The position numbers were made by a program, and so were the translations under genes. A DNA stretch of 64,000 bases from Acidobacteriota bacterium (GTDB taxonomy: Bacteria; Acidobacteriota; CAIWXX01): assembly GCA_040755995.1 (NCBI GenBank), contig JBFMAF010000035.1, forward strand, positions 128,001-192,000, in the 5' to 3' direction. Below, one piece after another: positions 2,887 to 5,529 of this stretch. Position 1 is the first letter of the stretch, and every line of letters starts with the position of its first letter. Under the pieces are notes generated by a model that saw only the letters and a list, made by a program, of their open reading frames with translations, searched no databases and was not told the DNA's origin.

Positions 2887-3636
2887 TCACCGCACGGCGC
2901 GGACATCCACGGCGAGGACGGCCGGATGCTTCGTGCGGGCGTTCCTGCTGCATCGGATCATGAGCGCTTCACGGAAGCCTGCCGCCCTGAACTCCTCCAG
3001 GAAGGCTCCGCCTTCCATAGCGCCGGCGATTCAGGCAAACCAGGCGCGCTCGTCGACGGGTTCTGTCGCGGGCAGGGGCTCCTTCAGGATCAGCTCGGCC
3101 GCGTGCAGAACGCCGCCGGGGCGGACGACACGTGCGAGCTCTCGGAAGATCGCGTCTCGATCTGGGTTGAGGTTGAACAGCCCGTTCGTGACGGCGACGT
3201 CGATCGACGCGCCGGCGATGGGGAGGGCATCGGCGGCGGCGAGGCAGAAGAGCATCAGGGGATACGCATCGCGAAGGCTGGCGCGGGCGCGGGTCAGCAT
3301 GGCCTGGCTGAAGTCGACGCCGATCACACGTCCGAGCGGGCCGGCGGCCCTTGCGGCGATCCACGCGTCCATACCGGCTCCGCAGCCGGCGTCGAGGACT
3401 GTTGCGCCCGGAGGGATGTCGGCGATCATGGTGACGTTGGAGACGCCGGTGAACGCATCCACGCACGGGGGCGGGCAGTCGGAGAGCAGCTCGACAGGGT
3501 AGCCCAGGCTGCAGGCGAAGCCCCGCCCCAATGGGAAGGGATGCGTCGCGTCCGGCTGCGCTGCGGCCCTCGAATAGGCGCGTCGCACAGCGTCGTGCGC
3601 CAGTTCAGGCCGGCTCCACGGAATTCGCACACTCAC
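2887..3636 (-). CDS. ArsM-like SAM-dependent methyltransferase, probable selenoprotein (in-frame TGA at 3031-3033 read as Sec)
   Basis: SAM motif VLDAGCGAGMD, then GVDFS and VRPGG. Reading through the TGA gives AWFA-U-IAGAMEGGAFLEEFRAAGF...DVRAVR* (stop at 2887-2889), matching the ArsM W..CIAGA....L..AGF pattern. The start may be GTG at 3630. Confidence 0.85.
3000..3016 (-). promoter_or_regulatory. Candidate bacterial SECIS hairpin
   Basis: mRNA GGAAGGC-GGA-GCCUUCC: a 7-bp stem starting 14 nt after the UGA, with a loop beginning with G about 21 nt after the UGA. Confidence 0.7.
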
Positions 3637-3781: not shown

Positions 3782-5362
3782 TTAACGCACCAGCAGCCTG
3801 CTGGCATCCGAGTAGAGGCTGTTCCCATATTGGTCTTCGCCGTACACGCGCCAGTACAGCGTGCCTTTCCTGCCGGAGAGGCTCTGGATCTTCTTCCAGG
3901 CCTTCTTGCGAGGAGTGCATTGCGAACCCTGGATCCACGTATCCTTCCCCGAGAGCGGCAGCGTGAGAACGTCCTTCGAGAAAGTGGGACGGCTGCAGAA
4001 CTGGATGCGGAATCTGTCGTACGGCGTGCTGTCCCAGGAGAACGTCGCTGTCACCTTTGACGAGACGGTCGCTCCGTCTGACGGTGCCTTGTTGGCGATC
4101 GCACCCATGCAGGCCGCGATCGGCCCGTGGAACTTGCTTGTTCCCGCGGAATCCACCTCTTCGAGCTTGTAGAAGAAGGTCTGGCCGAGAGCCACGGCTG
4201 GATCGGGCCAGGAGTAGCTCGCGCCGGTCGAGGTCCCTCCCTCTGCCGGGATCATCGAGTCGGTGATCCTCAGGTACTCGCCGTCCCTGGCCGGGCTCTT
4301 CCAGAGGTAGAAGCCGGCACTGTCCTTCTCCGTGGCGGTCTTCCACTGCAGCAGCAGAGCGCCGGCCGACGGCTTGCCCTCGAACGAAACGAGGCCGACG
4401 GCCGTCGTGCCGTTGACCGTGAGAACGTCAAGGCCGTAATCACTATTATAGTGGTAGCTGCTTCCGGAGAAATCATAGATAAGGCCAGAAAGCGTCCCGG
4501 TACCGGCAGAGACCACCTTGAGACGATATGTCTGGGATATCGGATTTCCGCCGGCCTTGTCGCCGGTGTAATTCGCCGGCCCTATGCAGCTCCTGTAGTT
4601 CGGTGACGTCGGGACGGCATCCCACCCGCAGGCATCGGCGTAGACCTTGTCGTTTGTGGCAGGCGGTGGCGGCGGAGGCTCGGGGTAGGTGACCCACGTA
4701 GTGACCAGCTGGAACATGGATTCAGGGAAGACGAGAGTATTCACGAGCTGTTCGTATCCACCGGTGGCTGTCTTCGAGTTCATGACGTAGTCGTACATCG
4801 CGCCAACCTTGACCGACGTTGCGCCCGTGATGCTGTTGACCTCGTTTCGGTTCTGGCTGACGAGCTTTTCGACATAGAGCTCGCGTGGGGTCGGCGTGCT
4901 CACCATCGGGGCGTTGATGGCCTGCGCTTCGATGTGGTACTGCCTAGTGGTGTTCCAGGCGCCCGTGTTTCTCGTCACAGTCACCTCGTAGTACACGTCC
5001 CAGGTGGCGCCGACGGCGAGCACGGTATCGCGAAAGATCGTTTTCGGAGCCGGGCCGTTGGTCAGATCGATGTAAGTGTTGGCGGAGTCCCAGAAGAAGG
5101 TGGCACTCGCAGTGGCCGCAGGGGAGCTCCCTGTGTTCGTGACCCTGGCCGCCACGAGAAAGCGGTCCGGACCGTCTGACACCTTGTTGCTGTCGAGACC
5201 GATCACGTTCCATGTGATCGGCGTGATGCTGAGCGTCGTCATCTGCGCCGATCCCGGGCCGGCCCCGACTGTCCCCATGACCACCAGGACCGACACACAC
5301 CAGGGCAGAATTCCAAACGATCCGCGCTGGATAGAATACCTTGACAAGTGCACCGATTCCAT
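3782..5362 (-). CDS. Secreted/surface beta-rich protein with a C-terminal Ig/fibronectin-like segment
   Basis: ATG at 5362 follows GAGGAG. Hydrophobic signal-like stretch, Thr/Ser/Tyr-rich body, and TAVGLVSFEG..LQWKTATEKDSAGFYLW..FFYKLEEVD segment. Confidence 0.7.
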   Translation of the reverse strand: MESVHLSRYSIQRGSFGILPWCVSVLVVMGTVGAGPGSAQMTTLSITPITWNVIGLDSNKVSDGPDRFLVAARVTNTGSSPAATASATFFWDSANTYIDLTNGPAPKTIFRDTVLAVGATWDVYYEVTVTRNTGAWNTTRQYHIEAQAINAPMVSTPTPRELYVEKLVSQNRNEVNSITGATSVKVGAMYDYVMNSKTATGGYEQLVNTLVFPESMFQLVTTWVTYPEPPPPPPATNDKVYADACGWDAVPTSPNYRSCIGPANYTGDKAGGNPISQTYRLKVVSAGTGTLSGLIYDFSGSSYHYNSDYGLDVLTVNGTTAVGLVSFEGKPSAGALLLQWKTATEKDSAGFYLWKSPARDGEYLRITDSMIPAEGGTSTGASYSWPDPAVALGQTFFYKLEEVDSAGTSKFHGPIAACMGAIANKAPSDGATVSSKVTATFSWDSTPYDRFRIQFCSRPTFSKDVLTLPLSGKDTWIQGSQCTPRKKAWKKIQSLSGRKGTLYWRVYGEDQYGNSLYSDASRLLVR

Positions 5363-5529
5363 TTCAGTCTCCTCTTGACTCCCGCCGGGTGTGGCTACAA
5401 GGGTGCCCCAAATCTCCATAGCCCAGGCCTGGATGCTGAAGCTATCCCCTCCGTTCTTTCTATCTCGCTGACTTGAGCGCCCCGTCTGTCCTCCGGGCAA
5501 CTCACTGGGGCTAACCTCGAGTCGCACTG

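Follow-up and report, generated by a model that had tools for sequence, protein, structure and literature searches.

Canonical arsenite methyltransferases of the ArsM/AS3MT type depend on cysteines, and a protein is counted as a canonical ArsM when at least three of four such residues are present (PMC5552862). All four cysteines of CmArsM are needed for activity on As(III); in the scheme set out for this enzyme, MAs(III) is held by the Cys174-Cys224 pair, and DMAs(III) ends bound to Cys224 alone (PMC6138428). For TtArsM from Thermus thermophilus, arsenite methylation is described that uses a single Cys together with two His residues predicted as ligands (bioRxiv 10.1101/2021.07.12.452139).

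Selenocysteine (Sec)-containing members of this family have been predicted before, as the original prediction for the locus described here had said, and since at least 2008: a Sec-containing arsenite methyltransferase is included in the GOS selenoprotein list of that year (PMC2398784), and again in two reviews (PMC9312934, PMC13188914). Its catalogue entry, NF008823/PRK11873, has the motif UxxG with one Sec, and WP_011987699.1 as example (PMC13188914). The same 2026 review describes three fusion families with a UxxG Sec, which it credits to Haft and Tolstoy 2025, namely NF041537 (ArsM/AhpD), NF047649 (MTase/UXPK-star) and NF041536 (ArsM/DUF2284), and its table contains the methyltransferase selenoprotein MduS, with a CxxU motif and two Sec (PMC13188914). 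Neither a coupling of Sec to the loss of the other cysteines nor a substrate is stated in the portions of this literature that were searched; Haft and Tolstoy 2025 and Fomenko 2007 may cover both points.

The gene considered here lies on the reverse strand at positions 2887..3636 of a 64,000-nucleotide window (the whole stretch analysed) from the genome of an Acidobacteriota bacterium, which is 7.7 Mb in size and 99.8% complete. Translated with TGA as U from a GTG at 3636, the inferred start (an alternative GTG lies at 3630), it comprises 249 codons. As originally proposed, an in-frame UGA at 3031..3033 is followed by 47 sense codons (IAGAMEGGAFLEEFRAAGF..., 2890..3030), and the resulting protein has one Sec, Sec202, in the sequence WFAUIAG. 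The true stop is a TGA at 2887..2889, and 20 of 22 complete homologous tails have a stop (TAA, TAG or TGA) at this codon; a further Sec at this second TGA was rejected, as homologs stop there with any stop codon. The product is a stand-alone class I SAM-dependent methyltransferase of ArsM fold, as judged from its translation, Pfam and NCBIfam matches, an AlphaFold model and fold matches. SAM-binding motif I, DAGCGAG, is encoded at 3373..3393, and residues D82, G84, C85, G86, G88 and D90 are invariant (alignment A1). The model of the 249-residue protein, with U modelled as C, has a pLDDT of 90.9 and finds its best fold matches in ArsM/AS3MT; its read-through tail forms a helix (211-218) and the last two beta strands (223-231 and 240-248). 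The truncation by gene callers that had been anticipated is borne out by the gene's own database entry (P0002), a call of 201 amino acids.

Several lines of evidence bear on the reading of the UGA. The host genome contains selA, selB and selD, each above curated cut-offs, as well as tRNA-Sec (selC), completing the set that the original prediction had proposed to look for. A protein database search with this gene returned 643 matches at E <= 1e-20, the best 120 of which, including P0002, were listed. Among the other 119 matches listed, 113 end right before the UGA codon, at WFA, WFS, WFG or WST, two are full length with Cys (P0005, P0006), two are likewise full length but with Trp (P0003, P0004) and two end elsewhere. 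At the nucleotide level, TGA occupies codon 202 in all 25 close-subfamily loci examined, which come from both metagenomes and genomes and are ~50-64% identical, and in the 22 with complete tails 27-33 of 47 tail residues are identical to ours, versus 0-6 of 47 past the true stop. Across 102 aligned methyltransferase domains, column 202 is invariably Cys or TGA. The alignment of homologs thus shows both the Cys/Sec column and the conserved tail that had been put forward as a check.

Read-through is near certain given the 25 TGA loci, the conserved tail, the truncated homologs, the sel genes and the completion of the fold by the tail, and SelB-tRNA(Sec), guided by the hairpin described below, almost certainly inserts Sec at codon 202. 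That the TGA is instead a true stop, arising by nonsense mutation or ending a short protein, or is read as Trp, is highly improbable. In its favour are the Trp residues at the UGA column of P0003 and P0004 and a hairpin that is by itself not significant against shuffled sequences. The Trp residues are probably the product of a metagenome pipeline that translated TGA with code 4, and a Trp code was rejected for this genome, in which TGA ends 3131 of 5474 long ORFs; a nonsense mutation or pseudogene was rejected in view of the homologs that end at the UGA codon, the 25 loci with TGA at this divergence and the conserved tail that completes the fold. The presence of selA in carriers of the gene was also recorded: it was found in six of eight carrier genomes and not found in two (72% and 91% complete). 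Sec use is nearly universal in the class of genome G352, where selA was matched in 125 of 137 genomes, and this co-occurrence is therefore uninformative. The host SelD (G000:C42:88264-89187, reverse strand; L014) is a selenoprotein too (CAGUASK), its TGA being followed by a short hairpin.

The SECIS-type hairpin GGAAGGC-GGA-GCCUUCC was found where it had been reported, at 3000..3016 on the reverse strand, with seven Watson-Crick pairs closing a GGA loop. It starts after a 14-nt spacer from the UGA, its loop begins ~21-22 nt past the UGA, and it fits the bacterial SECIS consensus as published (PMC13188914). Its energy is -12.7 kcal/mol. Compared with shuffled sequences, its folding is unremarkable (z of -1.06 for a 36-mer; longer pieces, for which the minimum-energy fold contains another hairpin, gave -0.46, 0.01 and -0.65). 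Of the 3131 TGA-ended long ORFs of the genome, 26 (0.8%) are followed at this distance by a G-loop hairpin of at least seven Watson-Crick pairs. Hairpins of at least six pairs with an early-loop G are present in 23 of 25 close-subfamily loci, compared with 211 of 3131 ordinary TGA stops (6.7%); of the two loci without one, one reaches a contig end and one has a mismatch. An alignment of 17 sequences has 98% of its cells paired (48-80% in slid controls) and shows three two-sided changes. Codons that favour pairing were used for Phe (TTC, 16/16, 9.7 expected), Ala (GCY, 15/15, 7.9 expected), Lys (AAG, 14/14, 8.2 expected) and Leu (CTN, 16/16, 12.2 expected), and more weakly for Glu (GAA, 11/16, 7.8 expected), where expectations follow each gene's own usage and both the pairing and the codon figures are inflated by relatedness.

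Alignment to 4KW7/5EG5 places Sec202 at the position of CmArsM Cys224, Val65 (3442..3444) at that of Cys72 and Gly152 (3181..3183) at that of Cys174. The motifs FTGVSNV (residues 62-68), TNGLFNL (150-156) and CPPPC (54-58; 3463..3477) are all present, and the claim that Sec is the sole residue at a canonical arsenic-binding position holds. Since Cys72 and Cys174 are absent, the two-thiol arsenic clamp and the disulfide cascade of canonical ArsM are very probably unusable. Among the 116 close homologs that could be parsed out of the 119 matches listed, the Val65 column is Val in 114 and Cys in none, the Gly152 column is Gly in 113 (three not parsed), and His32 is kept in 112. The CPPPC, which had been singled out as notable, is probably incidental, with Cys54 in none and Cys58 in 23 of the 116; on these counts it was rejected as a substitute redox motif.

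We aligned the 102 methyltransferase domains (loci L001-L124), keeping only matches that covered query residues 80-204 and excluding one duplicate copy of this gene; this set is a sample rather than a census, as it was collected with this gene as query. The 42 with Cys at position 174 all have Cys72, and one has Sec at the Cys224 column. Cys72 is absent from all 60 Gly174 domains, which carry Sec (55) or Cys (5) at that column. Sec at the Cys224 position is thus nearly fully coupled to the loss of Cys72 and Cys174. In a quick tree, 54 of the 60 Gly174 domains form one branch (support 97) and the other six sit in an unresolved fork; this gene belongs to an 18-row subfamily (support 100) marked by GVSNV, NG(I/L)FNLNP and an RNAR(T/S)K tail. 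The site had been thought unusual for this gene, but by this alignment it is found in 60 of 60 Gly174-clade domains examined, and it is a trait of the clade rather than a peculiarity of one protein.

Some variants were recorded in their own right. A second Gly174-clade paralog in the host (G000:C4:94845-95477, reverse strand; L002) has an in-frame TGA (LWASUIGG) and a GGA-loop hairpin. The sole canonical ArsM among the 42 with TGA at the Cys224 column retains GCGNP and SNCVINL (L104:2853-3455). Extra in-frame TGA codons occur in N-terminal extensions of L079 (near 900) and L080 (near 960), possible two-Sec forms, and P0122 is a 528-residue protein of two tandem Gly174-clade methyltransferase domains with Cys in both. 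Genome G459 has a degraded, frameshifted second subfamily copy (L150:7097-7580) ~20 kb from an intact one. In a 401-genome sample of the phylum, the subfamily was found in just two genomes at E <= 1e-55. A search for longer fused forms gave five matches, one probably a frameshifted read, and a single-protein scan of genome contigs gave one irrelevant 36-residue match.

Gene neighbourhoods were compared between canonical and Gly174-clade genes. Genes were counted within 1.5 kb at loci whose flank measured at least 2 kb: 12 of 38 canonical ArsM loci had arsC, acr3 or arsN2 nearby, as did 1 of 40 Gly174-clade loci. Conversely, selD, tauE, nifS, dsrE or rhodanese genes were near 7 of 40 Gly174-clade loci (6 if the hit at L084 is a ThiL-like cross-hit) and 0 of 38 canonical loci, a contrast that is overstated because these very loci supplied the queries and because related genomes do not count as independent. 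The host also has a canonical three-Cys ArsM (G000:C9:49244-49795, forward strand; L003/L127), which scores 302 bits on NF008823 and is followed by arsN2. Within the close subfamily, 13 well-flanked loci include one with a sulfur or selenium (S/Se) gene nearby (L055) and one with acr3 (L132, G459). In G448, arsR and a canonical arsM come after a close-subfamily Sec gene (L154:924-3177), and other close members (G440, G441, L052) lie near copper or heavy-metal efflux genes. No neighbour is conserved across the subfamily; with 30 loci compared, each neighbour recurs in 4 at most.

In the window, metK-ahcY follows the Sec gene on the same strand after a 135-bp gap in which no terminator-like site was found. 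A functional tie to these genes is treated as incidental, because the ORFs of 29 related loci, of which many are short, included no metK or ahcY homolog. At 2838-2880, the same gap has imperfect, GATTC-like repeats of 5-6 nt in a short run. Directly upstream of the Sec gene, a 581-residue ORF (3782-5527, reverse strand) has a stretch of hydrophobic residues at its N terminus and is matched by no Pfam or NCBIfam model.

A sister-branch locus (L059:4786-6729, forward strand) encodes a Cys-form Gly174-clade methyltransferase fused to a NifS-type cysteine desulfurase. The fused gene is preceded by an ArsR-type regulator and followed by DsbB-like and DsrE-like ORFs. Another Cys form is fused to MerT and HMA domains (L017:778-2403, reverse strand; G001); an ECF sigma/anti-sigma pair lies close to it, as does a Sec paralog. 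In G487, a Gly174-clade Sec gene lies beside selA, selB and a selD fused to a CMD domain (L157:600-7092). Cys-form clade genes on two haloarchaeal plasmids (L147, L148) and a Chelatococcus plasmid (L146) adjoin OsmC, carboxymuconolactone decarboxylase or ECF sigma/zf-HC2 genes.

With only Sec at the Cys224 position, the substrate would be held at one point. The explanation that we consider best overall, although we hold it at slightly less than even confidence, is that Sec202 serves a selenoenzyme that methylates a Sec-held sulfur or selenium atom. Sec202 would occupy the place at which the substrate of ArsM is kept beside SAM, as the single anchor for a soft substrate. It could take up an S or Se atom, for which a cysteine desulfurase or Sec lyase, a rhodanese or a DsrE protein are candidate donors, to give Sec-Se-S(-) or Sec-Se-Se(-); the terminal atom would then attack the SAM methyl, and a cellular thiol or an AhpD/OsmC-type partner would free methanethiol or methylselenol and restore the selenolate. 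Every chemical step of this cycle is conjectural. A role in the detoxification or volatilisation of reactive S/Se species, and S/Se as the substrate class, are likewise tentative proposals that we would place somewhat below an even chance. The suggestion in the original prediction that the substrate may differ from arsenite is supported as a possibility.

The same selenoprotein could instead act on an organoarsenical held by one protein ligand, complementing the cell's canonical ArsM, with DMAs(III) going to trimethylarsenic, or an MAs(III)-thiol adduct, as candidate substrates. We regard this as unlikely, though it has several points in its favour: the closest solved sequences and folds are all ArsM/AS3MT, DMAs(III) is finally bound to Cys224 alone in the CmArsM scheme, and arsenic genes adjoin the close-subfamily members in G459 and G448. 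Against it, ars genes are near just 1 of 40 clade loci, and CmArsM is reported to need the Cys174-Cys224 pair for MAs(III) (PMC6138428). A canonical ArsM is also found in six of eight carrier genomes, but it is present anyway in 81 of 137 genomes of the class, which makes this co-occurrence uninformative. An S/Se acceptor appears slightly favoured over an organoarsenical because the host already has a canonical ArsM, because of the S/Se versus ars genes that neighbour the clade, and because of the desulfurase fusion in L059. Counted against S/Se are the flat signal within the close subfamily (1 of 13 for S/Se and 1 of 13 for acr3), the arsR-arsM pair in G448, the efflux islands and the one-Cys arsenite methylation of TtArsM.

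That the substrate of the same selenoprotein is some other soft metal or metalloid (complexes of Hg, Sb, Te, Bi or Cu), or else an organic thiol or selenol, seems rather improbable. This reading would accord with the MerT-HMA fusion, with the several close members that lie within Cu/Cd efflux islands, and with conserved aromatic residues near the site (F34, Y46, F62, W199) that could make an organic pocket; however, many unrelated resistance genes gather in metal islands, and no partner is consistent. Inorganic arsenite, methylated by a non-canonical route in which Sec202 with His32 or small thiols replaces the missing cysteines, is more improbable again. The arsenite methylation described for TtArsM, with its one Cys and two predicted His ligands, and the retention of His32 in close homologs speak for such a route, but the Cys that TtArsM keeps (C77) lies in its N-terminal part and does not correspond to Cys224, many outer clade members have another residue in place of His32, and the gene is rarely near ars genes. 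Returning to the S/Se cycle, a broader form of it would make the Gly174 branch a large, mostly mis-annotated selenoenzyme family that left arsenic chemistry and methylates Sec-bound S/Se, its size suggested by the 643 database proteins matched by this single query; we consider this extension doubtful. If true, a three-Cys clamp would have been traded for a single Sec, giving a methyltransferase with catalytic selenium and possibly, in soils and sediments, a so far unrecognised way in which methanethiol/DMS or volatile methyl-selenium is formed.

From its sequence, the protein is a real selenoprotein that has been mis-annotated and that belongs to an already catalogued kind. This gene and most of its close relatives are stored truncated, at ~196 amino acids (113 of the 119 matches listed), and are often labelled 'arsenite methyltransferase'. 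Such entries are without two core strands and the sole catalytic-site residue, and may inflate arsM counts in environmental surveys. The coupling between Sec and cysteine loss poses a clear, testable question on the function of a one-selenium methyltransferase.

Compared with canonical ArsM/AS3MT, the protein shares the class I SAM fold and keeps the third arsenic-site position, as Sec. CmArsM (PDB 4FR0/4KW7) is its best PDB sequence match (E 3e-18) and its best fold match (E 3e-17, TM 0.64). It differs in having Val for Cys72 and Gly for Cys174, in its lack of a conserved N-terminal Cys and in being rarely near ars genes, and with V65, G152 and U202 it falls outside the three-of-four cysteine definition of a canonical ArsM. 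TtArsM, likened here by its description only, keeps C77 in its N-terminal part and has no Sec. MduS differs in its CxxU motif and two Sec, as this protein has one Sec only and no CxxU, and no MduS model was among the 25 of 30 NCBIfam matches listed. With the catalogued Sec-containing arsenite methyltransferase it has in common the ArsM fold, one Sec in UxxG (here UIAG) and a SECIS past the UGA; it scores 138.2 bits on NF008823, where the cut-off is 263, and the example WP_011987699.1 was compared by description only. Its best NCBIfam matches, over residues 14-228, are to the fusion families (NF041537, 170 bits; NF047649, 169; NF041536, 131), below all of their cut-offs of 460-575 bits, and it ends at residue 249 without their second domain or a second Sec. 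Two clade loci, when read with TGA as U, do pass: L073 on NF041537 (523.8 against 510) and L077 on NF047649 (505.4 against 460). Both share the site residues of this protein (Val for Cys72, Gly for Cys174, Sec for Cys224), and both lie in the 54-row branch that contains this gene. Since these two pass the cut-offs and are without both cysteines, the one-Sec site is already within curated families, and the stand-alone subfamily described here is the uncurated part.
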